From: a virus
DNA: 64,000 bases
Strand: one strand, 5' to 3'
Virus record (IMG/VR): IMGVR_UViG_3300031951_000037
Location: 32,001-96,000 of that record
The notes under the pieces are model-generated. The model did not search any database. It was given only the letters and a program-made list of their open reading frames with translations, and was not told where the DNA came from. Below are positions 43,768-64,000 of the stretch, one piece after another (within the stretch, counting starts at the first letter, position 1; the number at the start of each line of letters is the position of its first letter). Position numbers and translations under genes: made by a program.

Positions 43768-43774
43768 CTAAATA
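43768..43774 (+). promoter_or_regulatory. Late promoter (CTAAATA) heading the glyco-enzyme operon
   Basis: Intergenic TAAATA core, followed by AGGAG and the ATG at 43788. Confidence 0.6.
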
Positions 43775-43787
43775 CTCATAGGAGTTT

Positions 43788-44096
43788 ATGATGGATACTA
43801 AGACCTTAATTACCGAAGCAAAAGCTCGTTTTGCTCACAATTCAGCAAAAGACTATCTAAAAGAAAAGTACAATGCAAAGCTACTCGTAGCAGAGCAGGG
43901 TGGTCTTTGGCGTGCTGACCAAGAAACTATCTCATTCCTAACATCATTCTTAAATGAAGAAGTCGTTCTTATGGATACATTTGACAATCCAGTAAAGGTT
44001 AATCGCCAAGACCTTAAAGATAAGTTATGTGAAACTTATTATAGAGTGATGAACGAATGGCACGATGAGTGGAAAGAGCTTGAAAGTAAGAGATAA
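43788..44096 (+). CDS. Hypothetical protein, 102 aa
   Basis: Strong SD (AGGAG) and a late promoter upstream; no recognisable family. Confidence 0.7.
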   Translation: MMDTKTLITEAKARFAHNSAKDYLKEKYNAKLLVAEQGGLWRADQETISFLTSFLNEEVVLMDTFDNPVKVNRQDLKDKLCETYYRVMNEWHDEWKELESKR

Positions 44097-44097
44097 C

Positions 44098-44271
44098 ATG
44101 ACCGAACTAGTATACGATTCAGATAACGGCATCATCGCATTAGCATTACAAATGTACGTTCACTACGCTACTGAAATGGGCGGCGATCAGCATTTGATTG
44201 ACAGAGCTGGTGAGCTAGAGTTTATCTTTAAGAATAAACCTACAACAGAAAGATACGAGTGGCCAGAATGA
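44098..44271 (+). CDS. Hypothetical protein, 57 aa
   Basis: ATG 1 nt after the previous stop; ATGA overlap with the next gene. Confidence 0.5.
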   Translation: MTELVYDSDNGIIALALQMYVHYATEMGGDQHLIDRAGELEFIFKNKPTTERYEWPE

Positions 44272-45074
44272 CTCGTGGCGTAATACTATTTGCTTTCAAT
44301 AGTCCCAAATACAATTACTATGATATGGCTAAACATACTGCAAAGCGTGTTGAGCATTTCTTAAAGCTGCCTGTTACGTTAGTAACAGATGAAGACTCTA
44401 TGCCTGCAGGAGAGTTTGCGTATTGGGACAAAGTAGTAAAGATTAAGCCGGATAAGAATAACTTTCGTGACTGGGGCATGTGGATCAATAAGGGTCGCTA
44501 TATGGCTTACGAGCTTAGCCCTTACGAAGAAACATTATTACTTGACGTAGACTACATCATCAACTCAAGTAAACTGCTTACCTTATTTGATATTGACACA
44601 GATTTTTGCTGCCACAATAGAACTAATTTCTTAATGCATCCAAATGCACCACAAGAACTACTGTCAGTTTACAGCTATGAGACACTATGGGCCACTGTTG
44701 TGATGTTCCGCAAGAGTACTCGTGCCGAGCAAATCTTTAAATGTTTAGAAATGGTACAAAAGAACTATGAACACTACGCCAACATTCATAATTTTATCGC
44801 CCCTGTATATCGTAACGATTATGCTCTCACTCTCGCCCTTCGTATTGCTAACGGCCATAGTGTTGATTCCCGCGATGTTATTCCTTGGGATTTACTGCAC
44901 GTTGGAAAAAATACGCAAGTTTATCGTAATGGTGATGACCAGTTTGGGACAGAGTATACGGTCATGTTTGACAACTGGCAACGGGGCAAAATAAGAAAAG
45001 AGTATATTACAATCAAAGATCAAGACTTCCACGTGATGGATAAAGAAATATATGTGGAGATGATCAATGAATAA
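44268..45074 (+). CDS. GT-A fold glycosyltransferase (DxD motif)
   Basis: GVILFAF N-terminal strand, YELSPYEETLLLDVDY, RNDYALTLA; start set at ATG 44268. Confidence 0.7.
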   Translation: MTRGVILFAFNSPKYNYYDMAKHTAKRVEHFLKLPVTLVTDEDSMPAGEFAYWDKVVKIKPDKNNFRDWGMWINKGRYMAYELSPYEETLLLDVDYIINSSKLLTLFDIDTDFCCHNRTNFLMHPNAPQELLSVYSYETLWATVVMFRKSTRAEQIFKCLEMVQKNYEHYANIHNFIAPVYRNDYALTLALRIANGHSVDSRDVIPWDLLHVGKNTQVYRNGDDQFGTEYTVMFDNWQRGKIRKEYITIKDQDFHVMDKEIYVEMINE

Positions 45075-45825
45075 AGGCTTTGTCATTATGGCGCAGGGTC
45101 TTGATTATGAAGTCTGTGCAGAAGTTCTTAAGGACAGCATCTTAAACGTGATGCACGATGCCAACGTGACTATCGTTACTACTGATATGCTTCCGTACGG
45201 TGATCAGGCTCCCGATATTGATTGGAAGTTGCAGAATGACTGGCAAGTATACGAAGCAAGTCCATATGACTATACAATTAAACTTGAAGCCGATATGTAT
45301 TTACCAAAGTCAATTGACTATTGGTGGGATGTATTACAGAATAGAGACTTAGTAGTAAGCACTACAATCAGAAACTTCAAGCAAGAGATTTCGGATGTTA
45401 AAGCATATCGTAGATTTATTACTGACAACAATCTACCTGATACTTATAATGCCATTACATACTTCCGTAAAAGTGAGTTAGCAGAAAAGTTCTTCAACAT
45501 TGTTAGAGACGTATTTGAAAACTGGGACCAATACAAAGCTATTCTAAAATGCAACGTTGATGAGCTTTGTACAACAGATTGGGCTTATGCTATTGCTGTA
45601 CATATTCTAGGTGAAGAGAATACTACACTGCCGCAATTCAAAGAAATGTCAATGATACATATGAAGCAATTCATTAACGGTTGTCCTACTCAGAATTGGA
45701 CAGACAATTTGATTTATGAGAAGCTTCCGCACACATTTAGAATCAATACTATTCCGCAACTGTATCCATTGCACTATCACGTAAAAAGTTTAACTAAAGA
45801 ACTTAGGGGAAATAACAATGGATGA
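45067..45825 (+). CDS. GT-A fold glycosyltransferase, paralogue of the preceding gene
   Basis: KGFVIMAQ, YEASPYDYTIKLEADM, TTDWAYAIA align with the 44268 protein. Confidence 0.65.
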   Translation: MNKGFVIMAQGLDYEVCAEVLKDSILNVMHDANVTIVTTDMLPYGDQAPDIDWKLQNDWQVYEASPYDYTIKLEADMYLPKSIDYWWDVLQNRDLVVSTTIRNFKQEISDVKAYRRFITDNNLPDTYNAITYFRKSELAEKFFNIVRDVFENWDQYKAILKCNVDELCTTDWAYAIAVHILGEENTTLPQFKEMSMIHMKQFINGCPTQNWTDNLIYEKLPHTFRINTIPQLYPLHYHVKSLTKELRGNNNG

Positions 45826-46138
45826 AGTAGTTGTTATTTGGGAAAGTCATAAGGTTGCCAAGCCAGAGTTTAGGCTTTATTATGACGATAGGGGATGTGC
45901 TATCGCTTATACCTGTGAAAAACTTGAAGGTAATTACATTATCATTGATGCAACAACATTTGCTGAGGCTAGACCCGACATTAAAGTTGTTGACGGAAAA
46001 ATCATTAGAGATCACTATGGCTCGGTAGTGAGCAAGTTGTGTAAAGACACTGAGGGTGTTCTTTGTGAGGTTGAAGACCTAAGCGTTATCACTGAGACCG
46101 ATGGACAATATTGGAAATTAAAAACTTATGAATTATGA
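45818..46138 (+). CDS. Hypothetical protein, 106 aa
   Basis: Overlaps both neighbours in the operon; no recognisable family. Confidence 0.6.
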   Translation: MDEVVVIWESHKVAKPEFRLYYDDRGCAIAYTCEKLEGNYIIIDATTFAEARPDIKVVDGKIIRDHYGSVVSKLCKDTEGVLCEVEDLSVITETDGQYWKLKTYEL

Positions 46139-47078
46139 TGACATTGTAGATATCGCAGACCTAGACTGCATCTATCTTAGCTATGATGAACCACAGAAAG
46201 AAGAATTTTGGATTAAGATTAAGAACTTGGTTCCATGGGCTAAGAGAGTTGATGGAGTTAAGGGTAGCGATGCCGCACACAAAGCAGCAGGCGAAGCAAG
46301 TGAGACAGAACGCTTCATTCTCATTGACGGCGATAATATGCCTAACGAGGATTTCTTCAATCTACAACTAGACTTTACAGGATTAGATCCTAATTACAAG
46401 TTAGCGCAATATCGTTGGCGTGCAGTTAATGCTATCAATGGCTTGCGTTATGGCAACGGCGGTATGAGTTCTTGGACAAAGACCTACGTTGCCAACATGA
46501 AGACCCATGAAACAAGCGATGGTAGTGACACTACTGCCGTTGACTTTTGCATGGATTCTTCTGATAATCTATACTGGGCGATGCACGACTGCTACTCCAC
46601 AACGTATCCTAACTACACTCCCTTCCAAGCGTGGAGAGCAGGATTCCGTGAAGGTGTCAAGATGGTACTTGATCGGGGTGCAAAGCCCAGTATAGATGAC
46701 TTTAGAGAAAGAGTTGCAGGACGCAATCTAAACAATCTTACTATCTGGCATAACGTTGGCGCAGACGTAGAGAATGGTGTTTGGGCTATCTATGGTGCAA
46801 GACTTGGTACATATATGACTATGCTCACAGATTGGGACCACAAAGAAGTAATGTGGTTTGATAACTTTCCTATTCTTTGGGAAAAGCACAAAAATGCACA
46901 GCCTATTATAAGTTCCGAGATGTTGGGAGATGAGTTGGTTGATAAACTTGGACTACCAATGTGCATGTTAGACCCCGAGCAAAGCAAGTTTTTTAAGCGT
47001 CACTATAACGCAGACAAGTATAACATGGGTCCACTCGTTAAGGAGATGGACGTTATTAGAAAGATTGAAGGCTGGTAA
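46128..47078 (+). CDS. Putative glycosyltransferase (GT-A-like, DGD motif)
   Basis: 316 aa; DCIYLSYDEP...RVDGVKGSDAAHKAA...FILIDGDN...AINGLRYGNGG...AWRAGFREGVKM. Confidence 0.55.
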   Translation: MNYDDIVDIADLDCIYLSYDEPQKEEFWIKIKNLVPWAKRVDGVKGSDAAHKAAGEASETERFILIDGDNMPNEDFFNLQLDFTGLDPNYKLAQYRWRAVNAINGLRYGNGGMSSWTKTYVANMKTHETSDGSDTTAVDFCMDSSDNLYWAMHDCYSTTYPNYTPFQAWRAGFREGVKMVLDRGAKPSIDDFRERVAGRNLNNLTIWHNVGADVENGVWAIYGARLGTYMTMLTDWDHKEVMWFDNFPILWEKHKNAQPIISSEMLGDELVDKLGLPMCMLDPEQSKFFKRHYNADKYNMGPLVKEMDVIRKIEGW

Positions 47079-47106
47079 GTCTCAGCCATAACTAAGGAAA
47101 TAAAAT

Positions 47107-48504
47107 ATGTCATTTAACGATTACCAGCGTCATTTAGAAAATACAAAGACCGAATTGGATTCGGTTAGTGGTTCATTCTGTGCCGCTAAGTGGAAGCAAG
47201 TGACCATGCACTTACAGAATGGCCACACGCATAGCTGTCACCACCCCAAAACACACCACGTACCGGTTGAAGAAATTAAAAGAAATCCAACTGCATTGCA
47301 TAACAGCGAATATAAAAAGCAGCAGAGAAAATTGATGCTTGAAGGTGAACGCCCTTCTGAGTGTGACTATTGCTGGAGAGTAGAAGATCAGGGAGATAGC
47401 TTTAGTGACCGAGTGTACAAGAGTGCAGACAACTGGGCCAAACCTTTTATTCAAGATATCGCTAGCAAGCCATGGGATGACAACGTTGATCCTAGCTACG
47501 TAGAAGTTAGCTTTGGTAATGTGTGCAACTTCAAGTGCAGTTATTGTGCGCCACATATCAGCAGTCAGTGGATGGAAGAAATTGAAAGACACGGTCCCTA
47601 TCCTACCAGCGATAACTTTAACAATCTAGATTGGCTAAAGAGTCAGAACATGATTCCGATTCCCAATAGAGAAGAAAACCCATACGTTGACGCTTTTTGG
47701 GAATGGTGGCCAAGAATGTATAATAGTTTGCAGCACTTTAGAATTACGGGCGGCGAACCACTATTAAACAAAAACACTTTCAAGGTATTGGACTATATTA
47801 TTGATAATCCTAATCCTAACCTAGAAGTAAGTATCAATACTAATATGAATGCACCTGACGATATTCTTGACAAGTTTTTAGAGAAGGTCAAGATCATTCA
47901 TGGTGAAAATAAATTAAAGAACTTTAAGTTGTTTACAAGTGCCGAAGCTCATGGTAGACAGAGTGAGTATATCAGATTTGGAATGAATTATGATAAATGG
48001 TTAGGCAACATTCATAAAACTTACAAAGAAGTTCCGGGTATTCAGTTCACCATTATGAGCACCTACAACTTCCTAAGTATGACTTCATATATTCCATTCT
48101 TGAAAGATGTGCTAGATATTAAGTTAGAGTATCATCGTTGGGACGATCACAGAACCCCGATGTTACTTGACATTCCATATCTAAGATTCCCCAATCATCA
48201 GGCAATATTCATTATGGAACCAGAGCAGCTACAAATGATCTATGATCAGGTTACATTCATGTACCAAAATCTTGAATACAAGAACTGGTATGGTAGTGCT
48301 AACCGTGGGTTCTTTGAACATGAGGCTGACAAATTGAAAAGAATCTACAATATCGCTAAAGACAATGTTGTAACGGAAGTCACCGAAAATAATCGCAGAA
48401 ACTTTGTAAAGTTTGTTGATGAGCATGACAAGCGCCGAGGCACGAACTTCTTAGCGACATTCCCTGAGTACGGGGAAGTTTACTATAAGTGGAAGAATAT
48501 GTAA
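47107..48504 (+). CDS. Radical SAM protein with an N-terminal Cys/His-rich (twitch/SPASM-like) region
   Basis: CNFKCSYC at 47524-47547, ITGGEPLL, SINTN; N-terminal C...SCHH...CDYCW. Confidence 0.9.
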   Translation: MSFNDYQRHLENTKTELDSVSGSFCAAKWKQVTMHLQNGHTHSCHHPKTHHVPVEEIKRNPTALHNSEYKKQQRKLMLEGERPSECDYCWRVEDQGDSFSDRVYKSADNWAKPFIQDIASKPWDDNVDPSYVEVSFGNVCNFKCSYCAPHISSQWMEEIERHGPYPTSDNFNNLDWLKSQNMIPIPNREENPYVDAFWEWWPRMYNSLQHFRITGGEPLLNKNTFKVLDYIIDNPNPNLEVSINTNMNAPDDILDKFLEKVKIIHGENKLKNFKLFTSAEAHGRQSEYIRFGMNYDKWLGNIHKTYKEVPGIQFTIMSTYNFLSMTSYIPFLKDVLDIKLEYHRWDDHRTPMLLDIPYLRFPNHQAIFIMEPEQLQMIYDQVTFMYQNLEYKNWYGSANRGFFEHEADKLKRIYNIAKDNVVTEVTENNRRNFVKFVDEHDKRRGTNFLATFPEYGEVYYKWKNM

Positions 48505-49283
48505 TGCGTGTAGCACTATGCATAAGTGGTCAGCCAAGAACATGGAAAAACTCATATTATACATGGGTTGAACACTTATTGCCCGGTGTAGAAAAAGATA
48601 TTTTCTTCCATTTATGGGATTATAACACATTGCCGGGAATAGTAGTACAGTCAGGAGTATCTAAACTTGAGGATGTTCCTATTTCAGAAGAAGAAAAACA
48701 AGAAATACTAGATACGTATCAACCTAAGAAATATAAGTTTGATAGTAGAAATGTTAATCCGGTTGAACGTGACAAAGATCCTAGTATACTGTCTGATTAT
48801 GTGAAATATCCATTAGGTTGGTGGTGTAGAAGTCAGTATCATAGCTTATACTATGCTGCCAATCTAAAAAGACAATACGAACTTGAAAACAATTTTGAAT
48901 ACGATGTTGTGTTTAGAATGAGAACTGATCTATATTTTATGGAAAACTTAAACATGCCCGCTACAATTCGTCCTAACGAGTTCTACAGCAAAAGCAACGG
49001 CTACATGGATAACGTTGAAGCCTTTATGATAGGTGATACATTTTATTTTGCTGATAGTTTTACATACGACCAAGCGGCAGAGTTCATCTATGGATTAAAC
49101 TTCATTGATGCTAGACACGTTGCACCCGCACACATATTATGTCCTCCACCTGAGGTTGGGTTATATCCCTTTTTGTGTGCTAGTGGAATAAAAAATGTCA
49201 GTTGCCCGCAAAACATAAAGATATTACGAAATCAAGAATATCTTGACATAAGAGGAAGGTTAGCACACTATGAAGTCGTATAA
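48504..49283 (+). CDS. Glycosyltransferase-like protein, paralogue 1 of 3
   Basis: MRVALCISGQPR...DIFFHLWD...YDVVFRMRTDL...IGDTFYFA; TAATG overlap with the radical SAM gene. Confidence 0.5.
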   Translation: MRVALCISGQPRTWKNSYYTWVEHLLPGVEKDIFFHLWDYNTLPGIVVQSGVSKLEDVPISEEEKQEILDTYQPKKYKFDSRNVNPVERDKDPSILSDYVKYPLGWWCRSQYHSLYYAANLKRQYELENNFEYDVVFRMRTDLYFMENLNMPATIRPNEFYSKSNGYMDNVEAFMIGDTFYFADSFTYDQAAEFIYGLNFIDARHVAPAHILCPPPEVGLYPFLCASGIKNVSCPQNIKILRNQEYLDIRGRLAHYEVV

Positions 49284-50139
49284 GATAGCAGTCTGTTTGA
49301 GCGGCGAGGCGCGCACTTGGGAGCATTGTGCAACCAACATACTAGAATTCTACAAAAGCGATGTTCACGAAGTAAAGTTTTTTGGACATACCTGGACTGA
49401 AAGCGACTATAGAAAAGAGCATGAATACTATGGTGTGGAAAGATACGAACGCTACGATAATACAGTGCTAAATCTCAAAATGCGAAACAAAATTAATTAT
49501 CAAAAACTAGTAGTGGATAATAAATCGGTAGTCAACGACACACCTGAACCAAGCGTTATAAGTTTTGATGAATGTACATATGGTCTCAAACGAGCAGCAA
49601 ACTTAGTCAAGCCTACAGTGTATGTGCATATGAGCTACAGTATCATGAAAGCTAACTGGCTTAAAACAATGTACGAAATAGAAAACGATATGCGTTTTGA
49701 TTTAGTAGTTAGAGCAAGACATGACACATACTATATGCCCGGTACAACGTTTGACAGTTATATACCTAATAATATAGAGCCAACTGTAATACATGGTGCC
49801 ATCAACACCTTTCCAATGGAATATTGGCAAAACCACTTTAATGACGTATTATTCTTTGGATCAAGTAGAGTGATGAATACTGTATGTGATTTTTACAGAT
49901 ACTATAGTACGGGAAAGTTTTGGGAACTATTAGATACACACTGGAACGACCCTTATGTAAAAATCTGCGGGTATAATGTTAGTTTGTATAAATGGTTAGC
50001 AATGAAAAACATAAGGGTAAAAGAAACTCCCCTCTTGTTTAATACTGCTGTGTTTAGAAAAAAAGCAGCAGACGAACTATATAGATTGCCTCAAGATGCG
50101 GAAGCAATTTTAGATGTTGAAAGAGGGTTGTTCCGATGA
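49270..50139 (+). CDS. Glycosyltransferase-like protein, paralogue 2 of 3
   Basis: KIAVCLSGEAR...FFGHTW...FDLVVRARHD...FNDVLFFG. Confidence 0.5.
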   Translation: MKSYKIAVCLSGEARTWEHCATNILEFYKSDVHEVKFFGHTWTESDYRKEHEYYGVERYERYDNTVLNLKMRNKINYQKLVVDNKSVVNDTPEPSVISFDECTYGLKRAANLVKPTVYVHMSYSIMKANWLKTMYEIENDMRFDLVVRARHDTYYMPGTTFDSYIPNNIEPTVIHGAINTFPMEYWQNHFNDVLFFGSSRVMNTVCDFYRYYSTGKFWELLDTHWNDPYVKICGYNVSLYKWLAMKNIRVKETPLLFNTAVFRKKAADELYRLPQDAEAILDVERGLFR

Positions 50140-50957
50140 GAATTGCAGTATGCTTTAGTGGGGTTATAAGAACAGGAGTGTTATGTGTTGATAACATAAA
50201 ACGTTTCTTAGGAGACATGCTACCAAACTGCGATTTTTTCCTACACACATGGGATTACGAAACTAATAAGCCTTTTGCTAGAACGCACTGGAACGATATT
50301 CCATTTATTCAGCGACTTGACGAACCGTTACGTCAAGAAAAACTACAAAAATTCATTGAAGCATACAATCCAATAAAGTTTAAGGTAGATAGTTATTCAG
50401 AGTTTATGAATAGCGTTACTAATAAACAGTTTCCTATAGTGTGGCATACGCTGTCTAGAAGCTTTGAGCTTAAAAGACAACATGAACTGGAAAACAATTT
50501 TACGTATGATGTAGTAATAAAGATTCGCCCAGACGTTATATTTCCCGATTACAAGAGTCTGCGAAAAGCATTAGCTAGAATAGATATATCTAAACCGGTT
50601 ATTTACAGTGATCCGCATATAGCTCATAGGTTAGATGATGTATTTTGGATCACAAATAGCCAGGTCGCTGATACAATGATTAGATTAGTAGCGGAACCTA
50701 GGATGCCACCAGATAACTTTAATACAGCAGTGGTTGAGTTCATACGAAATAATGGAATATCTCATTTACCGATTGCGGGCATTGATCAGATTTGCTATAC
50801 TATATACAGATATGAATCGTACATGCTTGACCCTATGACAAATTTCCGTGAATGCTATATGAACGATCTTATACATTACAGTTCTGTACCTGCCGAAGAA
50901 ATACAAGGAGTGTTTCGTTACAACGATAAAAATAACTTATATAGGACAGTGAAATGA
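50136..50957 (+). CDS. Glycosyltransferase-like protein, paralogue 3 of 3
   Basis: MRIAVCFSGVIR...DFFLHTWD...YDVVIKIRPD...LDDVFWIT. Confidence 0.5.
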   Translation: MRIAVCFSGVIRTGVLCVDNIKRFLGDMLPNCDFFLHTWDYETNKPFARTHWNDIPFIQRLDEPLRQEKLQKFIEAYNPIKFKVDSYSEFMNSVTNKQFPIVWHTLSRSFELKRQHELENNFTYDVVIKIRPDVIFPDYKSLRKALARIDISKPVIYSDPHIAHRLDDVFWITNSQVADTMIRLVAEPRMPPDNFNTAVVEFIRNNGISHLPIAGIDQICYTIYRYESYMLDPMTNFRECYMNDLIHYSSVPAEEIQGVFRYNDKNNLYRTVK

Positions 50958-51748
50958 TTGATTTCCTATACGCAAATGGATGTAGCTGGACAGCCGGCAA
51001 CGGCATTCAAGATGACCCAAGTTTATCCGATTTGGAACCTGTTGAGAGATGGAGTCATCTCGTACCAAACGCATGGCCTAGTGTAGTCGCAGAAAAATTG
51101 GGCGTTGAACATATCAACGAAGCTCAGGGCGCCGGCAGCAATGCACGTATGGTTAGAACCACGTGCGATTTCTTACGGAACTATCCAAAGGAAAAATATA
51201 GTTCATTGGTAGTAATGTTGGGCTGGACTACGGTTGACAGAAATGAAGTATATTTACGTGAAGACGAAAAAGAAGGATGGTGCATGTTTAATGCTACACA
51301 GCCGGTTAGTTCACACGGTGTACCCTTCAGACCAGACTTTAGTAAGGACTATTTGCGAATCATTGATGAGTGGCAAAAAGACTATATCTTAAATGTGTAC
51401 TCAAATCATAATAACTATGTTAAGTTTCTGCAAGAAATGTATCTTATGAGCAATCTACTAGAAAACTTGGGCATAAGGTATTTGTTCTTTAGCAGCTTGC
51501 CATGGAGAACTGCATGGATGCCAAATCATGATAGTTTTGATATATCAGAAAGATTTGCTCAAGAAATTGCAGCAGTACAAAAGCCCTGCATTTTGAATAC
51601 CCGAGATTCAGATGAATCATTAAATGTAATGAGTATTTTTTGCAATATTAATCAAATCCCAATGGCTACCGATTGCCACACTATGATAGAAGGACACAGA
51701 AGATGGGGCGAACATCTATATCAGGAGTTTACTAATATTTATGGATAA
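50954..51748 (+). CDS. SGNH/GDSL-family hydrolase or acyltransferase, 1 of 3
   Basis: Block I YANGCSWTAG, block II AQGAGSN, C-terminal DCH....GH. Confidence 0.75.
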   Translation: MIDFLYANGCSWTAGNGIQDDPSLSDLEPVERWSHLVPNAWPSVVAEKLGVEHINEAQGAGSNARMVRTTCDFLRNYPKEKYSSLVVMLGWTTVDRNEVYLREDEKEGWCMFNATQPVSSHGVPFRPDFSKDYLRIIDEWQKDYILNVYSNHNNYVKFLQEMYLMSNLLENLGIRYLFFSSLPWRTAWMPNHDSFDISERFAQEIAAVQKPCILNTRDSDESLNVMSIFCNINQIPMATDCHTMIEGHRRWGEHLYQEFTNIYG

Positions 51749-55406: not shown

Positions 55407-56118
55407 CTTAAGTCAGTATCCTGGTAAAACTGGAACATACTACTACAATCTGTTCTTTAATAAGTTTGGTATTGACGCAACTTATACAGCATTGGGTTGC
55501 CAGCCACATGAATTCAATGACACGTTTAACCGCCTAGTCAACGATACTGATACGTGTGGCATCAGTGTGAGTATGCCATATAAAAACACAGTAACCCATC
55601 TGTGTAACGAATTAGACAAACAAGCTCACCTATATAATAGTTGCAATACAGTTACGGTAAACAATGGACATACCGTAGGATATAACTGCGACATATATGG
55701 ATTGTTGGGTATCATTTCTGAGATATCAGTTGACGATAAGATATCAATATTAGGCGATGGGTCTATGGGACAAATGTTCTATCGTTACCTAAACGACAAT
55801 AAATATTTTGATGTTACCGTGTATAGCAGAAAAAACAACAATTGGCATGACAGGCATGAACCAGCGAACGTCATAATAAATTGCACTAGCTTGGGCACGA
55901 GCGAACTTGTTTCTCCATTAATGTTGATTCCTGCAGGAACCTCGTGTATAATTGACTTAGCGTTAAACAAGTCCGTTTTATACGAGCAATGCTTAGCAAG
56001 CCATGTGAAGTACATAACTGGTACGAACTTTTACGCACATCAATTTGTAAAGCAGTTTGAAATATACACTGGTATAAAAATTACAGTTGAACAGTTTAAC
56101 GAAGTGGCAATTAAATGA
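55390..56118 (+). CDS. Shikimate dehydrogenase-like (AroE fold) oxidoreductase
   Basis: SVSMPYK, CNTV, GYNCD..G, ILGDGSMG, INCTSLG, HQFVKQFEIYTG. Confidence 0.8.
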   Translation: MKQFYSLSQYPGKTGTYYYNLFFNKFGIDATYTALGCQPHEFNDTFNRLVNDTDTCGISVSMPYKNTVTHLCNELDKQAHLYNSCNTVTVNNGHTVGYNCDIYGLLGIISEISVDDKISILGDGSMGQMFYRYLNDNKYFDVTVYSRKNNNWHDRHEPANVIINCTSLGTSELVSPLMLIPAGTSCIIDLALNKSVLYEQCLASHVKYITGTNFYAHQFVKQFEIYTGIKITVEQFNEVAIK

Positions 56119-56600
56119 TTATAAACAAACTTGTTATTGATATTGATGGTGTGTTGACAACCGGGCATGTACTATACAATATAGAAGGCAAAACCTTCAA
56201 GATTTTTGGGCCACACGATAAGGATGGTCTTAAACTAGTAACTAAGTATATCAGTGATATTACTTTTATCACTGCGGACAAGACTGGCTTTGATATCACT
56301 TACGCAAGAATCGTCAAAGATTGGAAGTTTCGTGATGATCAGTTAGTTTTGGTTCCGGAAGAATCTAGATTTGACTGGTTTGTAAGTAATTGTGATTTCA
56401 ACACAACTGCATATATTGCTGATGGTTACCACGATGCTCCCATATTAGAGCGGGTAGCACTCGGTATTGCCCCCAAAACTGCTAGAATTGAAGCAAGAAA
56501 TAGTGCTAATTATGTCACACCTAGTGATGCTGCAAATGGTGCTGTACTTGACGCATGTTTATATATTGAAAGAGTGATTAATGGACTTGAAACAGTTTAA
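56115..56600 (+). CDS. HAD-family phosphatase, KdsC/YrbI-like
   Basis: DIDGVLTTG, DKDG, ITADK, YIADGYHD...ANGAV. Confidence 0.85.
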   Translation: MIINKLVIDIDGVLTTGHVLYNIEGKTFKIFGPHDKDGLKLVTKYISDITFITADKTGFDITYARIVKDWKFRDDQLVLVPEESRFDWFVSNCDFNTTAYIADGYHDAPILERVALGIAPKTARIEARNSANYVTPSDAANGAVLDACLYIERVINGLETV

Positions 56601-57585
56601 ATTAGGTGTGGGTCCAATGAGCAAAGAGATAGTTGAGCTATGCCTCAACTATAGCCACTCGCACGATCATCCACTAATGATTATCGCTAGTCGCAATCAA
56701 GCAGATTACGATAGTGGGTACGCAATGAATACCAAAGAACTATCGGAGCTAGTGTTCAATCATGAACATTATAATCCTAATAGGGTATTATTGTGTAGAG
56801 ACCATTGCGGTCCTTATTTCAGCGATATGGATAATGGTCTAGAACTAGAAGCAGCGTTAGTGCGATGCTTGAATACAATCAAGGCCGACATTGATGCAAA
56901 CTTTGACCTCATTCACGTTGACGTAAGCAGAGTAGAACCGAACAAGCAGCAATATGTTGCCGAGAAGTTGTTTTCCTATGCAATGGAACTGAATCCAAAT
57001 ATTATGTTTGAGTTTGGCACCGAAGACAATACGGGCAACACCACTGAAACATTGAATATGTTGAACATTCAACTAGAATATGTCAAGCCTTGGCAGAACA
57101 ATCTTCGCTATGTAGTGTCTCAGACAGGAAGCTTGACTAAGCAAACTCAAGTTGGTACGTTCAACATTGAACAGACCAAGAAGCTTATCAACGTCATTCA
57201 TCAAAATGGCTATATGTTCAAGGAACATAATGCAGACTATCTTGATGTTGAGCAGGTAAAGTTGCGTAAAGATACAGGAGTGGATGCATTAAATATCGCC
57301 CCGCAACTTGGCACTATTGCTAGCAGTGTGCTATATGATTTGGGTTCGGGCACAGTTGAATTATCAGAGTTCATGAATGTTGTACTTGATTCGGGCTATT
57401 ATAAAAAGTGGTGCACCGTTGAAGTAGACAATGACAAAGACCGCTTTATCAGTTCTGCACACTATTTGTTTGAGCATCCATACTGCTATGATCTAAAGCA
57501 AGTAATAGATATGGAAGAATACGCTACAGTGTTAGAGGCTAGATTGTTTGACGCACTAGACCAATATAGATTTGGGTACAACTAA
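56581..57585 (+). CDS. GatZ/KbaZ-like TIM-barrel protein (tagatose-phosphate epimerase/aldolase-like)
   Basis: IIASRNQ, RDHCGP, IHVDVS, FEFGTE, VVSQTG, KEHNADY, NIAPQLG follow the GatZ/KbaZ motif order. Confidence 0.75.
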   Translation: MDLKQFKLGVGPMSKEIVELCLNYSHSHDHPLMIIASRNQADYDSGYAMNTKELSELVFNHEHYNPNRVLLCRDHCGPYFSDMDNGLELEAALVRCLNTIKADIDANFDLIHVDVSRVEPNKQQYVAEKLFSYAMELNPNIMFEFGTEDNTGNTTETLNMLNIQLEYVKPWQNNLRYVVSQTGSLTKQTQVGTFNIEQTKKLINVIHQNGYMFKEHNADYLDVEQVKLRKDTGVDALNIAPQLGTIASSVLYDLGSGTVELSEFMNVVLDSGYYKKWCTVEVDNDKDRFISSAHYLFEHPYCYDLKQVIDMEEYATVLEARLFDALDQYRFGYN

Positions 57586-57607
57586 TAAAAATGGTAGCAT
57601 AATACCC

Positions 57608-57615
57608 AATAAATA
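57608..57615 (+). promoter_or_regulatory. Late promoter (AATAAATA)
   Basis: Intergenic, upstream of the 34-aa ORF and the carbamoyltransferase. Confidence 0.6.
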
Positions 57616-57637
57616 CTGACTACTATTGGAAACAACT

Positions 57638-57742
57638 ATGATTAAAATTATCAAGAACCTTATCAACAAAGTTAGGCGCGAGATTCTATATAGAAAAAGA
57701 ATCAAAGAGCTTAAAAAAAGAGATCCACATATTTACAGATGA
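57638..57742 (+). CDS. Small basic 34-aa peptide, absent from the ORF track
   Basis: MIKIIKNLINKVRREILYRKRIKELKKRDPHIYR; follows a late promoter; ATGA overlap with the carbamoyltransferase. Confidence 0.6.
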   Translation: MIKIIKNLINKVRREILYRKRIKELKKRDPHIYR

Positions 57743-59229
57743 ACTACGTAGGCATTAGTTGCGGCTTCCATGATGCCGGTTTAAGTGTCATTGATAACAA
57801 TGGCAATATTCTTTTTGCTGGGCACAGCGAACGATATAGCAAGAAAAAGCATGATAGTGACTTGTGCTTGGGCATTGTTGATGATGCGTTAAATTATATC
57901 AACAATGATTTTCAAGTGCATTACTATGAACGCCCTTATGTTAAGGCAATCCGTCAACTATATGCAGGGCAAAAGTTAGGACCATTTGGCTGGGACAAGT
58001 TAATCGGTTCTTCATTGTATGCGTTAAACACGGGCGAACACTCTCATAAAGGTAGAGTAAAGACGCACAATCACCATCTATGTCACGCCGCAGCAGGATT
58101 CCAAACAAGTCCATATGAAGATGCTACAGTAGTTGTTATTGATGCTATCGGTGAACTAGATACTATTAGTATTTGGGATGCAACTTACGATAAGAACGGT
58201 GTAGCAAAGTACAAGAAGATTTGGGGACGCAAGTATCCTGACTCAATTGGTCTTTTCTATTCTGCAATGACAGCACGAGTAGGCTTGCGCCCACTAGACG
58301 AAGAATATATTCTGATGGGTATGGCTGCATATGGTAAGCCAGTATATGATATCTCAATGCAACGATTATTCAGTAACTTTAATGAGATTGTTTTGAAAGA
58401 TAACCTACACATCGGAGTTGATGAAAAGTTTCTAAAGGATGCAGACGAAATGGATATTGCTGCATCTGCACAGGCTGTTGTTGAACAGCTAATAGAAACA
58501 GTAATGAAGAAGGCTAAGAAGCTAGGTAGTAGCGACAATCTCGTATATGGCGGCGGCGTTGCTCTCAATTGTCTTGCCAACAGACTACTGGGTAAGTATT
58601 ACGAAAACATTTGGATCATGCCTAACCCAGGTGATGCAGGTAATAGCTTAGGCGCAGCAGCGTTGGGCTATGGCAAGAAGATCAACTGGACAGATGCTTT
58701 CTTAGGATTTGACATTGAAGGTGATTATCCGGTTGACAGCATCATCAAAGAATTATATAGTAACAAGATGGTAGGTGTCGCTAGTGGCAGGGCGGAGTTT
58801 GGCCCTCGTGCATTAGGTAATCGAAGCCTGCTAGCAGACCCTCGCGGCCCTGAAATTAAGGACAAAGTTAATGACATTAAACGAAGACAGAAGTTCCGCC
58901 CGTTTGCGCCAGTCATTTTGGAGGAGCTGGTTACTGATTACTTTGATATGCCTAGTGGCTGGAGCGACAGTAGGTATATGCAAGTCATCGCTACTTGTAG
59001 GCATCCTGACTTATTTCCTGCTATCGTTCATCATGACGGGACTTCTCGTGTTCAGACTGTCCCGAATGACGGATCAGGAATTAGAAAACTACTAGAAGCC
59101 TGGTATAAAGAAACCGGCTGCCCAATGCTTTTGAATACGTCATTGAACATTCGTGGAGAACCCATGGTTAATGATCGTAATGATGCTGATAGATTTGAAA
59201 AACTCTATGGAGTAAAAGTCTGCTCATAA
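57739..59229 (+). CDS. O-carbamoyltransferase (NodU/CmcH/TobZ family)
   Basis: GFHDAG, ERYS..KHD, HHLCHAA, IDAIGE, SIGLFY, GGVALNC, GDAG, EFGPRALGNRS, RQKFRPFAP, HHDGTSRVQTV, LLNTSLN. Confidence 0.95.
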   Translation: MNYVGISCGFHDAGLSVIDNNGNILFAGHSERYSKKKHDSDLCLGIVDDALNYINNDFQVHYYERPYVKAIRQLYAGQKLGPFGWDKLIGSSLYALNTGEHSHKGRVKTHNHHLCHAAAGFQTSPYEDATVVVIDAIGELDTISIWDATYDKNGVAKYKKIWGRKYPDSIGLFYSAMTARVGLRPLDEEYILMGMAAYGKPVYDISMQRLFSNFNEIVLKDNLHIGVDEKFLKDADEMDIAASAQAVVEQLIETVMKKAKKLGSSDNLVYGGGVALNCLANRLLGKYYENIWIMPNPGDAGNSLGAAALGYGKKINWTDAFLGFDIEGDYPVDSIIKELYSNKMVGVASGRAEFGPRALGNRSLLADPRGPEIKDKVNDIKRRQKFRPFAPVILEELVTDYFDMPSGWSDSRYMQVIATCRHPDLFPAIVHHDGTSRVQTVPNDGSGIRKLLEAWYKETGCPMLLNTSLNIRGEPMVNDRNDADRFEKLYGVKVCS

Positions 59230-59232: not shown

Positions 59233-59238
59233 AAGTAT

Positions 59239-62200
59239 ATGCTTAGAGACGTATTCTATTTTGGTAAAAAGCCCAACGTTCATCCTAGAGAACAGTTTGC
59301 AGAGAATCTACAAGATGCTAGACTAAAAGCCACTACTCGTGACTTTTGGATCATTAATGAGTTCTCTGACTATCGCAATTTTGATTGGGACTTTGATTTT
59401 GAATTTTTGCCTGACGAAGACGTTTGGGCAGAAGATCACAATAACGTATGGCCTAGTCAGCATCAAAAGGACAGTGGCACATGGTTGTGTCCCAAGGAAC
59501 ATAGTGATGTTATTGTCTATCGCAATGATGTAGATCCGGTCATTCGTAAAAACGAAAAGACCGACCAATGGGTCGAGCTTGATTTAATCAACTATAGTAA
59601 GTTTGACTTTAGTTGGCATCCTGACCCAACTGATCCTCCCTATATCTATAAGTGGGGTTGTAAGTTCTTCCCAACAGAAATCAAGCATGTATTAGAGTAT
59701 CGTGTTCCTGGCGCTACTCAAGAAAAGTATATGAACACGATTGCAGAGTTAGTACCTGAATATGATCGTTGGGTAGAACATCAGGCAATTGACAAAGATA
59801 GATTTGATATGTCATGGAGACCAAATCCATTGGATCCACCATTCATCTATGTTTGGGGTAACAAGTATGTTGACGGAAGACTACAGCCCACACTTGAATA
59901 TCATGCTCCGAACGCAACTGATATAAAATATCTATCAGAACTTGTCCCTGTTTTACCTGAACAAGATAGATGGACTATTCTTGAGGATATTGTAAAAGAT
60001 TCATTTGACTTTAGCTGGCGTCCTGACCCAAGAGAACCAGCATTCATTTATGTATTTGGTAACGAACAATACGATGGCACAATCATGCCTACACTTGAAT
60101 ATCGTTGCCCTAATGCTACAGAAATTAAGTATGTCAATGATATTACGGCTAAATTAGCTCCCAAGAAGGAATTGTTTGAGCATTTAGAAGACAGTTATGG
60201 TATTGATTATAGCTGGCGCCCTAATCCTACAAGTCCTCCCTATATCTATGCATGGGGTAATCAATGGAATAGTCCAGAAGAAAAGATATCTATTCAGTTT
60301 GTCGTTCCAGGAGCCACAGAATACAAATATATGACAGAGCGTGCTATTCGCAAGCCATGCATGGATAATTGGGTAGTCCCTGATGATGTTGACGCTACTG
60401 GATTTGATTTTAGTTGGGAGCCAAACCCCACGGCACCCCCGTACATTTATGAGTTCGCAACACAATGGCAGAAGACCGGCGGCCCTCAGTACGTAGTACC
60501 GGGAGCTACGGAGAAACAGTATGTGGATTTTCAAAGAGTTAAAAGACTTCCTACAAACAAAGGTTGGGCGATTCCTAACAATATTGATATTGATAGATTT
60601 GATTTTTCATGGCATCCAGATAGTTCTAGTCCTCCTTATGTTTATGTATTTTCTACTCAGTGGGCATTCAGCGGCGGACCTGTATATACAGTTGATGGAG
60701 CAACTGAGGTCAAGTATGTAGAAGATCAGGTTGCTACTGCAATCGTAGATATGAATAATTGGGTATATGATGCTACTGAGATTGATGTAGACAGCTTTGA
60801 TTTTAGCTGGCATCCACATGCAGAAGATCAGCCATATATCTACCAGTTCGGTACTCAATGGCAGAAGACAGGTGGTCCTAAATATATTACTTCGGGCGCT
60901 GATAATTCAAGCCCGGTAAAATATGTAGATACTCGTATTATAAAAGCAATGCGCTTATCCAACCCACATGATTACTATTGGGTAGAAAATTATCCCATTA
61001 AAGACTTTGATTACTCATGGCACCCAGACGATACCGAAGAGCCATATATCTATGTATTTGGTAACAAGCAGTATCCTGCCGAAGAGTGTCCTACTATTGA
61101 ATATAGAATGGAAGGCGCAACTCAGGTAAAATACATTCATGATATCGTAGCTACGTTAGATGTAGATATGACTAACTGGGTAATTCATGAACCAATTGAT
61201 GAAGACAGTTTTGACTTTAGTTGGGTACCTAATCCAACTGACCAGCCTTATATCTATGTTTTCGGTAACCAACGTTATTCGGGTGAGATTTATCCCACTG
61301 TAGAATATCGTACTCCTAATGCGACAGAAAAGAAATATGTCAGTGATGTAACCGCTAAACTTAAAGTTGACAAGTCTAAGTTTACTTTATTATATCCAAT
61401 AAACGAAGATAAGTTTGATTTTAGATGGAGACCTAACCCAATGTCTCCTCCCTATATCTATATCTTCGGTAACCAATATTACTCAGCAGAAGAAATGCCC
61501 ACTGTAGAATATCGGGTAGATGGTGCTACCGAAATAAAATATGTGAAAAATATTACTGCACATTTGAAGTCCAACATGACAAATTGGGAAGTTCCTAGTA
61601 ACATTGACGTTTCAAGTTTTGATTTTAGCTGGGTGCCTCATCCCAAAAGTCCTCCCTACATCTATGAGTTTGCAACGGTGTGGAATGACAGGGGCGGACC
61701 TAGGTATATCGTCAAAGGGGCAACAGAATACAAGTACATTGAAGAAATTAAAGCTAAAACATTACCTGATAAAACCAATTGGGACATTCCGAATAATATT
61801 GATATTTCAAGTTTTGATTTTAGCTGGGTTCCTCATCCCAATTCCCCTCCATACATATATGAGTTTGGGACACAATGGAATGACAGGGGAGGACCTGTTT
61901 ACCGAATGCCTGGTGCAACGGAATACAAATACATTGATACTGTAAAGGCAAATACTCTTCCAAGCCGAGTCAACTGGGAAATACCAGACGGGGTAGATGT
62001 TAGACGATTTGATTTTAGTTGGGCACCACATCCGATGGCCCCGCCCTACATCTATCAGTTTGGTACTAAGCTAGATAACAACGACGGTCCTAGATATGTC
62101 ACGCCTAGCAACAACGGAGAGATTGTATATCTTGAGCGGGTAGAACTTTTAGGTTCATCTGATATTAGTGTGGGTCAATATTATATTGAAACCAGCTTGG

Positions 62201-64000
62201 AAGAGTTAATCAATAAGCATCCAAAAGAAATCTTTTGGGCAATGCGAAAGAACATTGACTATTCACACTTTGATTTTAGCTGGCGCCCAACTACTGTGGA
62301 AGTTGCCTATGAACTAGATTATGTTCATGTTTTTGGTTCTCCTGAATCAGAACTAACACAGACATATTTTGTGAGCGCAGAGCATTATCTAAAAGGTAAC
62401 ACCGAGTTTAAGTTTGTAGAAGATTTAAAACTAAATGAAGATACTTTGGCTAAACTATTCAAGAAGCCTGATATGTTCTTTATTGACAGAAGCAATAGTG
62501 AATCACAAGAGCGGTTTGAGAAGCTTAAAGAACGTTTCCCTGGCATTCAAAAGACTCGCTATCTTAATAGCTGGGTTGATACTATCAATCGCTGCACTAA
62601 GAAAGCAAGCACTGAATTGATTTGGGTTCTTAATAGTGAACTAGACTATAGCGACTTTAACTTTGATTACTATCCTAATCCTTGGCAGATGAAGATGGTT
62701 CAAGTGTTTGGTACTCAGTGGAGCCATTGGGGAACAACGTTCATGGTTAACTGCGAAACATTCCCCGAAGATACCAGGTATGTCAAGATTATTGAACATC
62801 TATCCAACTTGAACTTTGTGAAGGATATTCGTACTAAGGCAACACAGTGCGTCCATGATATTGTAGTTATTGACCATGCTAACAAGGAAACAAGTGATGT
62901 AGTGTCATTTTTGCAGAGTAAGGTATCTGACAACACGATTACGGTAATTCCTTATCAAGAGAGCTACCTAGAAACCTTCAAGGAAATTATTAGTAAGCAG
63001 CAAGAAAAGAAGGATCATTACATTTGGATTTGCTCAAGTGTATGTGACTATACGAACTTTGATTTCTCATATGTGTGTGATCCGTTTGCAAGAGACCAGC
63101 TACATGTTTTCCCAAGTGGAACGCAGAAGTTCGGTGATACTTTCTTCGTAGATGTTAACAAGGCTAGAGAAGTTATCAGTGATCTAGAACTACTAGAAAG
63201 CTTCAATAAGGTAAACTACAACATGACTATTAGGGCAGAAAGATTGCCCGAACCAGTGATTGTTGTTAATGATGACACGCATTCTACTGCTATTAATAAG
63301 ATTATTGATTTCCCATACGCAACACTAGTTACCTATGATAACACTGATGTACCTAAGGTTGATATTGAGCCGATGAATCTTTGGTCTAGCGATACTAAGA
63401 ATATCTATGTTACTAGTACTGGTGCAACTCGTATTGTTGTGCCTGTCGAAGCTAAGGACTATGTTAAGAAAGAATTGTATGAATATCCATACATTAAGCG
63501 TGCTCCTAAGTTAGCAACTTCTAAGCCATTAGATATCGTATACCTAAGTAACGGCGAAACAGGTGCCGACGAAAACTATCAATACTTGTTAGATGTTACT
63601 AAGGATCTCCCCAATAGAGTTGTTAGGGTAGATGGAATTAACGGTCGTGTTGCTGCTTATCATGCAGCAGCAGAGGCTAGCGAAACGACTTGGATGTTCA
63701 CGGTCTTTGCTAAGCTTAAAGTCAACCCTAAGTTTGATTGGAACTGGCAACCCGATAGAATGCAGGCTCCTAAGCATTATATTTTCTATGCAAAGAATCC
63801 AGTTAACGGATTAACCTACGGTCACCAAGCAATGATCGCATATAACAAGAAGCTCACACTTGCTAATGAAGGCAAAGGTCTTGATTTTACATTGGATGAC
63901 GAGCATGAAGTAGTGCCATTGATTTCAGGAACAGCAAACTACAATACTGACGAGTTCTCAACGTGGCGCACTGCATTTAGAGAAGTTATCAAGCTTAAAG
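59239..64000 (+). CDS. Giant tandem-repeat protein of GT-A-derived modules, >1587 aa, truncated by the window edge
   Basis: Hand translation is open from ATG 59239 (MLRDVFYFGKKPNVHP) to the window end (TWRTAFREVIKLK) with no stop; the last domain is homologous to the 46128 protein. Confidence 0.9.
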   Translation, partial: MLRDVFYFGKKPNVHPREQFAENLQDARLKATTRDFWIINEFSDYRNFDWDFDFEFLPDEDVWAEDHNNVWPSQHQKDSGTWLCPKEHSDVIVYRNDVDPVIRKNEKTDQWVELDLINYSKFDFSWHPDPTDPPYIYKWGCKFFPTEIKHVLEYRVPGATQEKYMNTIAELVPEYDRWVEHQAIDKDRFDMSWRPNPLDPPFIYVWGNKYVDGRLQPTLEYHAPNATDIKYLSELVPVLPEQDRWTILEDIVKDSFDFSWRPDPREPAFIYVFGNEQYDGTIMPTLEYRCPNATEIKYVNDITAKLAPKKELFEHLEDSYGIDYSWRPNPTSPPYIYAWGNQWNSPEEKISIQFVVPGATEYKYMTERAIRKPCMDNWVVPDDVDATGFDFSWEPNPTAPPYIYEFATQWQKTGGPQYVVPGATEKQYVDFQRVKRLPTNKGWAIPNNIDIDRFDFSWHPDSSSPPYVYVFSTQWAFSGGPVYTVDGATEVKYVEDQVATAIVDMNNWVYDATEIDVDSFDFSWHPHAEDQPYIYQFGTQWQKTGGPKYITSGADNSSPVKYVDTRIIKAMRLSNPHDYYWVENYPIKDFDYSWHPDDTEEPYIYVFGNKQYPAEECPTIEYRMEGATQVKYIHDIVATLDVDMTNWVIHEPIDEDSFDFSWVPNPTDQPYIYVFGNQRYSGEIYPTVEYRTPNATEKKYVSDVTAKLKVDKSKFTLLYPINEDKFDFRWRPNPMSPPYIYIFGNQYYSAEEMPTVEYRVDGATEIKYVKNITAHLKSNMTNWEVPSNIDVSSFDFSWVPHPKSPPYIYEFATVWNDRGGPRYIVKGATEYKYIEEIKAKTLPDKTNWDIPNNIDISSFDFSWVPHPNSPPYIYEFGTQWNDRGGPVYRMPGATEYKYIDTVKANTLPSRVNWEIPDGVDVRRFDFSWAPHPMAPPYIYQFGTKLDNNDGPRYVTPSNNGEIVYLERVELLGSSDISVGQYYIETSLEELINKHPKEIFWAMRKNIDYSHFDFSWRPTTVEVAYELDYVHVFGSPESELTQTYFVSAEHYLKGNTEFKFVEDLKLNEDTLAKLFKKPDMFFIDRSNSESQERFEKLKERFPGIQKTRYLNSWVDTINRCTKKASTELIWVLNSELDYSDFNFDYYPNPWQMKMVQVFGTQWSHWGTTFMVNCETFPEDTRYVKIIEHLSNLNFVKDIRTKATQCVHDIVVIDHANKETSDVVSFLQSKVSDNTITVIPYQESYLETFKEIISKQQEKKDHYIWICSSVCDYTNFDFSYVCDPFARDQLHVFPSGTQKFGDTFFVDVNKAREVISDLELLESFNKVNYNMTIRAERLPEPVIVVNDDTHSTAINKIIDFPYATLVTYDNTDVPKVDIEPMNLWSSDTKNIYVTSTGATRIVVPVEAKDYVKKELYEYPYIKRAPKLATSKPLDIVYLSNGETGADENYQYLLDVTKDLPNRVVRVDGINGRVAAYHAAAEASETTWMFTVFAKLKVNPKFDWNWQPDRMQAPKHYIFYAKNPVNGLTYGHQAMIAYNKKLTLANEGKGLDFTLDDEHEVVPLISGTANYNTDEFSTWRTAFREVIKLK
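59570..62110 (+). repeat. 13 tandem ~65-aa repeats: W......FDFSW.P.P..PPYIY.FG.Q....P..EY..PGATE.KY
   Basis: FDFSW-like cores counted in translation at about 59602, 59803, 60004, 60205, 60403, 60598, 60796, 61006, 61210, 61414, 61618, 61813 and 62008. Confidence 0.9.

Follow-up and report, generated by a model that had tools for sequence, protein, structure and literature searches.

Why should a bacteriophage carry, directly beside its fibre genes, some 20 kb of genes for glycosyltransferases (GTs) and other glycan enzymes, and on what would these enzymes act? The question is raised by a 64,000-nt stretch of viral DNA, i.e., bases 32001-96000 of one 126.5-kb viral contig (IMG/VR record IMGVR_UViG_3300031951_000037; estimated to be ~36% complete), hereafter referred to as the window. 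An earlier sequence-only reading had described the block that begins at position 43788 as a glycan synthesis and tailoring locus beside the tail genes under a late-type promoter, and this description holds in terms of gene content, synteny with the fibres and promoter motif. However, what had been taken for one 20-kb locus is really made up of three layers, namely a conserved head, an exchangeable island that is swapped as a cassette, and a conserved last gene encoding a giant repeat protein. We propose, tentatively and at a little short of an even chance, that the block is a late, wholly cytoplasmic glycan-building system whose acceptor is probably a phage protein made at the same time.

The proposal draws on what the block contains and on where it lies. 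In none of its 21 proteins is there a hydrophobic stretch of membrane-spanning length, and the families Bac_transf (PF02397), WecA-type (PF00953) and Wzx (PF01943) were absent from five near-complete IMG/VR relatives in searches with positive controls, Wzy and ABC transporters not having been searched. Soluble proteins, the lack of an initiating transferase or flippase, a promoter of the structural-gene type and a position next to the fibres together make a late cytoplasmic phage-protein acceptor the most economical explanation.

Results

Layout of the gene block

The block consists of 21 open reading frames (ORFs) on the + strand (43788-64191), the last of which extends 191 nt beyond the window. 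As had been noted beforehand (about 21 co-oriented, mostly overlapping genes), neighbours overlap by 4-38 nt at 17 of the 20 gene junctions, the gaps being 28 nt after the gene for a 316-aa protein, 52 nt before the ORF at 57638 and 9 nt before the giant gene. Scans for intrinsic terminators and sigma-70-type promoters stayed at chance level and gave no operon boundaries, and megablast of the locus against GenBank phages returned no match. For comparison, IMG/VR was scanned with the 316-aa protein, which yielded 376 related places, 80 of which were kept; locus counts throughout refer to these 80. The features of the block, which include a radical S-adenosylmethionine (SAM) enzyme, are listed below.

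43761..43775, + strand: promoter-like motif TATCCATC-TAAATAC, 13 nt before the first gene and followed by an AGGAG ribosome-binding site
43788..44096, + strand: 102-aa conserved protein, first gene of the unit (79 of 80 loci, ~64% identity)
44065..44271, + strand: 68-aa ORF, a doubtful or mobile small gene inside a ~270-bp insert
44259..45074, + strand: core GT-A-like protein 1, 271 aa, probable GT8/nucleotide-diphospho-sugar transferase-like (80 of 80 loci and Ralstonia phage RsoM2USA)
45067..45825, + strand: core GT-A-like protein 2, 252 aa, weak paralogue of the 271-aa protein (80 of 80 loci and RsoM2USA; phrog_1903)
45818..46138, + strand: 106-aa conserved protein (80 of 80 loci, ~54% identity)
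46128..47078, + strand: 316-aa core glycosyltransferase with an N-terminal GT-A domain and a helical C-terminal domain, left border of the variable island
47107..48504, + strand: radical SAM enzyme with an N-terminal twitch (auxiliary cluster) domain, first island gene (NCBIfam NF033640)
48489..50957, + strand: three tandem GT-A fold paralogues, GT6-like, of 264, 289 and 273 aa (phrog_13607; mutual paralogy)
50954..53430, + strand: three DUF6071 proteins, SGNH/GDSL-like, of 264, 265 and 301 aa (Pfam DUF6071 for two of the three)
53405..53860, + strand: small cupin, mannose-6-phosphate-isomerase-like (Pfam MannoseP_isomer and Cupin_2; TIGR01479 weak)
53832..55406, + strand: bifunctional LicC/MurU-like sugar-1-phosphate nucleotidyltransferase and APH/choline-kinase-like kinase (Pfam, NCBIfam)
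55369..56118, + strand: shikimate-dehydrogenase-family NAD(P) oxidoreductase (Shikimate_dh_N E 2e-13; TIGR00507 E 2e-27, below cut-off)
56115..56600, + strand: KdsC-like HAD sugar-phosphate phosphatase (TIGR01670 E 1e-14, below cut-off)
56581..57585, + strand: GatZ/KbaZ-like TIM-barrel protein of the class II aldolase family (Pfam GatZ_KbaZ-like E 2e-12, over cut-off; PDB 2fiq)
57610..57616, + strand: second TAAATAC promoter-like motif, within the 52-nt gap, the only sizeable gap of the block
57638..57742, + strand: 34-aa strongly basic ORF directly after TAAATAC, its stop overlapping the carbamoyltransferase start (ATGA)
57739..59229, + strand: O-carbamoyltransferase of the NodU/NovN/TobZ family (Carbam_trans_N 114.7 bits, Carbam_trans_C 163.5 bits, above the Pfam cut-offs)
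59239..64000, + strand, ending at 64191 beyond the window: giant repeat protein of 1650 aa with repeats and GT-A-like modules without DxD, right border of the island

Conserved borders and an exchangeable island

The genes at 37860, 41536, 42787, 43788, 44259, 45067, 45818 and 46128 are found in essentially all loci in identical order, and the GT core follows fibre genes in 80 of 80 loci and in RsoM2USA. What lies behind the 316-aa gene differs between lineages. Two to seven tandem N-terminal-SPASM/twitch radical SAM paralogues occur there in 72 of the 80 loci, often together with another radical SAM family, a B12-binding radical SAM enzyme, a NAD-dependent epimerase/dehydratase or an FkbM methyltransferase, and the island gene set of the phage studied here is present in only ~10 loci. 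At the DNA level, positions 44268-47078 are 88% identical to the closest relative (L009), with the similarity ending at the 316-aa gene, and positions 46134-57044 are 75% identical to a different locus (L023), whose upstream genes are only 65-70% identical. This mosaic of identities shows the island to be a cassette exchanged between lineages, and it is flanked by two conserved genes, for the 316-aa and giant proteins, that have a GT-A-like domain in common. Cassette swapping between conserved borders is as expected for a surface structure under diversifying selection.

RsoM2USA is the only cultured phage in which the head was found, its core being encoded there by ORFs 348-353. There the order is a fibre-like gene, a 271-like gene, a 252-like gene, one further gene, a 316-like gene, a radical SAM gene and a second 316-like gene, and a second module consists of DUF6071, radical SAM, two further DUF6071 genes and a carbamoyltransferase. 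The system is split in this phage, with the head at 125-130 kb of the record (L005) and the second module at 216-222 kb (L007), ~90 kb apart, and all of these genes are annotated as hypothetical. Virion proteomics of RsoM2USA covered the most abundant bands only (PMC8504454). As a cultured phage carries the core, the question of what the locus does is directly testable.

A promoter-like motif common to the block and structural genes

The sequence-only reading had placed a late-promoter motif at three sites. Exact copies of TAAATAC are present at two of them (43769 and 57610), and at the third, 59226, a motif of this type was looked for and is absent. The contig holds 32 copies in total, which is about the number expected by chance; contig-wide, 11 of the 32 lie 8-45 nt before a co-oriented start, against an expectation of 1.5% (P 6e-13). 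Among the genes behind these start-linked copies are those for the portal and for two virion structural proteins as well as a baseplate connector-like gene, and TAAATA is kept in all 65 distinct upstream regions of the first-gene homologues, nearly always inside the extended motif. Judged by this placement, we regard TAAATAC as a genuine promoter-like motif common to the block, the portal and the virion genes, and together with the gp55-like sigma factor encoded on the contig it supports, without proving, late transcription of the block.

The gp55-like sigma gene and a virion structural gene diverge from a gap in which two further TAAATAC motifs face each other (TAAATACatgtagagtagtGTATTTA; window 4848-4879). 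The pair looks like a bidirectional late-type promoter, which would also drive the late sigma gene itself.

The conserved head

The best characterised enzyme of the head is the 316-aa protein, which is 75-91% identical in relatives. Its model (pLDDT 93) has a GT-A domain at residues 5-167, for which the top Foldseek match is A64R of the chlorovirus PBCV-1 (PDB 2p6w; E 2e-4, ~135 aligned columns, 16% identity). VIA comparisons with GT-A enzymes gave Z scores of 9.7 to 7.9, in Foldseek-guided and independent searches alike, with the glycocin S-glycosyltransferases ThuS (Z 9.0) and SunS (Z 8.7) ranking among the best. The DxD motif (IDGDN) is intact, with D67 and D69 nearly invariant across the family, which comprises 1169 representative clusters at 50% identity, some of its members being tandem duplicates and others fused to GT-B domains.

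Of the three DxD-type GT-like proteins claimed earlier, this one stands by its GT-A model and IDGDN motif, and the 271-aa and 252-aa proteins are weaker cases, assigned through a motif and language-model similarity. The two resemble each other (BLAST E 9e-5), LLDxDY being an invariant motif of their family, and among named Atlas clusters the 271-aa protein comes closest to GT8/Nucleotid_trans (language-model similarity 0.96). Searches of Pfam (E up to 1-10, RsoM2USA homologues included) and PDB profile searches gave no useful match for either protein, and when their family was compared by hhalign with both modelled GT families, the DxD strands were aligned but the matches were not significant.

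Among the small head proteins, the 102-aa protein has no Pfam or PHROG match and the 106-aa protein no family match. The 68-aa ORF lies in the ~270-bp insert (43995-44267), which is missing from L009, where the blastn alignment is interrupted. Homologues of this ORF occur in 2 loci only (L012 and L018), there directly upstream of the giant repeat gene, which indicates that the small gene is mobile within the locus.

The exchangeable island

The radical SAM enzyme that opens the island is borne out by its match to NF033640 (344.8 bits against a cut-off of 170; E 7e-103) and by a CX3CX2C motif (CNFKCSYC, residues 140-147), and has N-terminal cysteines at positions 25, 44, 86 and 89; it has no PDB sequence relative at E 0.1. 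The three paralogues behind it had been called GT-like, and the model of the first (48489-49283; pLDDT 76, pTM 0.80) confirms the assignment, matching GT-A glycosyltransferases only. Foldseek reached BoGT6a and the ABO transferases at E 1e-5, and VIA aligned 180-199 residues with GT6 enzymes and hyaluronan synthase at Z ~11. Where other GT-A families have DxD, these paralogues have YDxVxxxRxD. Both modelled proteins, i.e., this paralogue and the 316-aa enzyme, thus show a GT-A fold, and the possibility that the GT-like proteins lack GT folds does not apply to them.

The three supposed SGNH proteins are DUF6071 members. Across 15 DUF6071 sequences a Gly, a Ser, an Asn and two His are invariant and the block I Asp is Cys in half; the conserved G-D/C-S, N and H residues are compatible with the earlier assignment. 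Profile matches to PDB SGNH esterases are marginal (E 0.06-0.09), and the acid-His spacing differs from the classical SGNH spacing. We treat these proteins as predicted SGNH-like O-acyl esterases or transferases. PDB profile searches with the family alignments A1, A3 and A4 gave no significant match.

The five-gene sugar-phosphate cassette is corroborated by Pfam, NCBIfam and PDB matches, among them that of the bifunctional enzyme to LicC (PDB 1jyk; E 2.6e-6). A single-protein scan of IMG/VR with this enzyme found no match, and a profile scan of 185,579 genomes found two weak matches to the nucleotidyltransferase domain only, so no bacterial source of the cassette was found. The O-carbamoyltransferase is equally secure, with both Pfam domains and PDB matches to NovN (E 5e-46), GdmN and TobZ, and it is 46% identical to an RsoM2USA protein. 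The 34-aa basic ORF ahead of it may serve as a leader or regulatory peptide or encode a small subunit; a similar basic ORF stands behind a TAAATA motif and ahead of the carbamoyltransferase homologue in one relative (L077).

The giant repeat protein

The giant protein had been described as a GT-derived repeat protein, a claim that stands for its C-terminal third. The 316-aa family profile matches residues 1429-1591 (E 2e-26) and 1075-1133 (E 9e-4) with the DxD position replaced in both (FTVFAKL), which identifies this third as dead GT-A-like modules. The N-terminal two thirds hold 14 repeats of ~66 aa each with the motif FDFSWxPxPxxPPYIYxFG. Compared with the 316-aa family by hhalign, these repeats gave E 0.27 with only a short motif in common, and a GT origin is accordingly unproven for them. 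Neither tblastn of the protein against phages (no match) nor an Atlas search with the repeat region (no usable match) added relatives. All five near-complete relatives carry the gene, with a varying number of repeats, and in these it lies 8-24 kb downstream of the one for the 316-aa protein.

Source phage and genomic setting

The source virus is, by its gene content, a T4-like phage. The contig encodes a gp55-like late sigma factor, gp46/47-like nucleases, baseplate hub and wedge, fibre-like proteins, portal, large terminase, gp32 and UvsX, and the baseplate wedge protein is nearest to jumbo phages of the Atu_ph07, Phosso and Rak2/Asteriusvirus type. The five near-complete IMG/VR relatives measure 333-364 kb, with terminal repeats in two of the five, in agreement with the earlier suggestion of a jumbo phage. 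Near-identical DNA is present in lake and freshwater sequencing runs from 16 studies, which makes this a freshwater jumbo phage and not a marine one. An identity as a marine pelagimyophage was rejected on the grounds of the baseplate protein, with its Atu_ph07/Phosso/Rak2-type relationship, and of the DNA in lake and freshwater runs. The ‘moraphage’ lineage was likewise ruled out as a match, being a separate, non-T4 group (PMC12619734).

Upstream of the block, the baseplate wedge gene is separated from the fibre genes by a single ORF of 6718 aa (window 17537-37693), the RsoM2USA homologue of which (ORF361) was detected in virions (PMC8504454). This ORF is followed by a 206-aa protein (window 37860-38480; phrog_11259, function unknown) with ~90% identity across relatives, well above the surrounding fibre genes. 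Beyond the window, at contig 106223-109604 (window-equivalent 74223-77604; L090), a canonical thymidylate synthase gene precedes two sugar-type genes, one nucleotide-sugar epimerase/dehydratase-like (phrog_540) and one aminotransferase-like (phrog_3139), which would represent a second, separate amino-sugar pathway outside the locus described here.

Discussion

How the block could work

From the gene content, folds, motifs, synteny, mosaicism and promoter motif observed here we infer a pathway product, a timing and an acceptor. The five-gene cassette would make a nucleoside diphosphate (NDP)-sugar by isomerase, anomeric kinase, terminal phosphatase and nucleotidyltransferase logic, the same logic by which the phage AfhE/AfhF arabinose pathway and the heptose pathway run (PMC13326640). 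Aldolase-like and dehydrogenase steps would shape the sugar, and with these added steps the product is probably an unusual one. Up to six GT-A-type enzymes, three of them backed by fold and two by motif alone, would transfer sugars, the three core enzymes laying a conserved glycan core and the three GT6-like paralogues adding lineage-specific residues. The twitch radical SAM enzyme would edit the glycan, the SGNH-like trio acylate or de-acylate it, and the O-carbamoyltransferase carbamoylate it. One of the Ser/Thr-rich fibre proteins from just upstream of the block could be the acceptor, as could the giant repeat protein, and the particle would leave the cell with a variable sugar coat. The matches of the modelled 316-aa enzyme to the capsid-glycosylating A64R of PBCV-1 and to the peptide-acting glycocin S-glycosyltransferases count in favour of phage-protein glycosylation. 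In a further version, which we consider rather improbable, the giant protein would accept the glycan at its 14 FDFSWxPxP repeats and hold it, as it grows, with its dead GT-like modules, the GT-A trio, the radical SAM arrays and the giant protein forming one protein-modification machine.

Several points weigh against this proposal of a late system acting on phage protein. Its timing is inferred from the motif and not from expression: the metatranscriptome matches, from one metatranscriptome and in the form of contigs, are five short exact pieces (43793-43943, 46413-46695, 48901-49051, 49656-49922 and 59422-59685), possibly DNA carry-over, that show neither transcription nor timing. The GT identity of the 271-aa and 252-aa proteins is probable, given the LLDxDY motif and language-model similarity only, and the 316-aa domain reaches only moderate Z scores (8-9.7); its fold is also that of nucleotidyltransferases. 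Ser and Thr make up 23-28% of the fibre proteins, a high content that is ordinary for fibres. The island type also varies independently of the adjacent fibre genes, L009 having the nearest fibre and GT genes and a different island. GT-A, GT6 and GT8-like enzymes also build lipopolysaccharide (LPS) and capsules, and the host machinery could be the source of a lipid carrier and of export. Finally, the premise of the sequence-only reading that DNA-modifying enzymes are normally early is not safe, as group transfer to phage DNA has been placed in later lytic stages (PMC13326640).

Weighing other explanations

An alternative that we judge unlikely is that the enzymes remodel the host envelope, altering an O-chain, a capsule or another surface glycan with the lipid carrier and export of the host, for instance to block adsorption of competing phages or re-binding of progeny to debris. 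The enzyme mix is typical of O-antigen and capsule loci, the island is exchanged in a cassette-like manner, GT6 and GT8-like folds serve LPS synthesis, and a similar gene mix beside the fibres of T4-like marine phages has been read as host-surface modification (PMC7029224). However, the block encodes no membrane protein, the five near-complete relatives have no initiating phosphoglycosyl transferase or flippase, and a late-type promoter common to the structural genes would be poor timing for exclusion functions. In addition, host glycans vary, in contrast to a GT core that is strictly conserved and keeps its place beside the fibre genes. A product of another kind, which we find hard to favour, would be a ribosomally synthesised and post-translationally modified peptide (RiPP) or a modified non-virion protein, matured by the GT-A core and the SPASM/twitch radical SAM enzymes, with a small conserved ORF as candidate substrate and a glycocin-like or cross-linked product released at lysis or kept inside the cell. 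Such enzymes do dominate the island in 72 of the 80 loci, the 316-aa enzyme has ThuS and SunS among its best structural matches, and a conserved 34-aa basic ORF stands ahead of the carbamoyltransferase; but this ORF has no Cys, Ser or Thr-rich core and resembles a leader or regulatory peptide, twitch radical SAM enzymes act on sugars too, the structural matches are at fold level only, and sugar-pathway genes dominate the island of this phage.

Least probable, in our view, is that the NDP-sugar and the transferases decorate a base of the phage DNA and so evade restriction, as in T4, RB69 and DLP3. The AfhE/AfhF arabinosylation pathway of RB69, DLP3 and HY126 likewise combines a LicC/MurU-like nucleotidyltransferase-APH-like kinase with a HAD phosphatase and an isomerase (PMC13326640), and late timing would not speak against transfer to DNA, which the same paper places in later lytic stages; carbamoyltransferases are, moreover, present in many large phages. 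Compared with that pathway, tblastn detects no similarity to the genes here, the bifunctional enzyme failing to reach RB69 or DLP3, the isomerase is a cupin and not a SIS domain, aldolase-like and dehydrogenase genes are added, and a 5-hydroxy/hydroxymethyl-cytosine synthase was not found. The arabinosyl- and glucosyl-transferases that the same text describes as acting on DNA are GT-B-like, whereas all modelled GTs here are GT-A. The sole thymidylate-synthase homologue on this contig (~36% complete genome) and in each of the five near-complete relatives is a canonical ThyA, with one PF00303 match per genome (~355 bits); the copy of this contig matches bacterial ThyA at ~290 bits and retains the uracil-specifying Asn in PFNIAS, and no hydroxy(methyl)pyrimidine synthase was found in the five relatives. 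The locus also lies in the fibre module and not in a nucleotide-metabolism module. It is the finding of canonical ThyA only, and of GT-A instead of GT-B enzymes, that weakens the case for DNA as the acceptor.

Relation to known systems

The nearest published counterpart is the host recognition cluster (HRC) of pelagimyophages and cyanomyophages described by Zaragoza-Solas et al. 2020 (PMC7029224). Like the block, the HRC is a hypervariable region of T4-like phages with fibre genes, a giant protein, GTs, LPS-type sugar genes and radical SAM cassettes, and both diverge gradually and by cassette exchange; judged by its genes, the block qualifies as such a cluster, being a variable fibre-adjacent region with GT, LPS-type and radical SAM genes. 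Unlike the HRC, it is found in freshwater jumbo phages of 333-364 kb related to Atu_ph07 and RsoM2USA, and its variable part lies between a GT-A head that is strictly conserved and a giant pseudo-GT repeat protein that is conserved as well. The HRC was read as serving host O-chain modification, without an experimental test (PMC7029224). Wzx/Wzy- or ABC-dependent O-antigen and capsule loci have a membrane-protein set that this block does not share, Wzy and ABC families not having been searched.

Virion glycosylation itself is established in mycobacteriophages, where glycans were demonstrated on the C-termini of capsid and tail-tube proteins, which are virion proteins of cytoplasmic origin, and where GT genes lie, as here, beside structural genes (Freeman et al. 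2023, as summarised in PMC12619734). The locus described here is far larger and adds its own NDP-sugar pathway and radical SAM, SGNH-like and carbamoyl chemistry. Chlorovirus PBCV-1 A64R and the clusters of giant viruses provide a precedent for glycosylation of a structural protein by viral GT-A enzymes that are soluble and do without the membrane machinery of the host. The likeness of A64R to the 316-aa enzyme is at fold level only, A64R being an enzyme of a eukaryotic virus and the 316-aa family having its own helical C-terminal domain.

Fibre-adjacent clusters of GT, LPS-type and radical SAM genes in T4-like aquatic phages are already published (PMC7029224), and what seems to be new is the three-layer architecture in a widespread clade of freshwater jumbo phages. 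No experimental characterisation of the 316-aa family or of the N-terminal-twitch radical SAM arrays was found in the literature.

If the glycan is indeed placed on the particle, these widespread jumbo phages of fresh water would have a sugar coat that they make themselves and that varies by cassette. Virion glycosylation, shown so far in mycobacteriophages and giant eukaryotic viruses, would then extend to T4-like phages of Gram-negative hosts, and a function would be given to the sugar and radical SAM genes, so far puzzling, that abundant aquatic phages carry in their host-recognition regions. Should the giant protein itself prove to be the centre of the machinery, the version we rated as rather improbable, it would be a new, heavily and variably modified phage surface glycoprotein, with sugars that are edited by radical SAM enzymes, acylated and carbamoylated, and swapped between lineages like a serotype.

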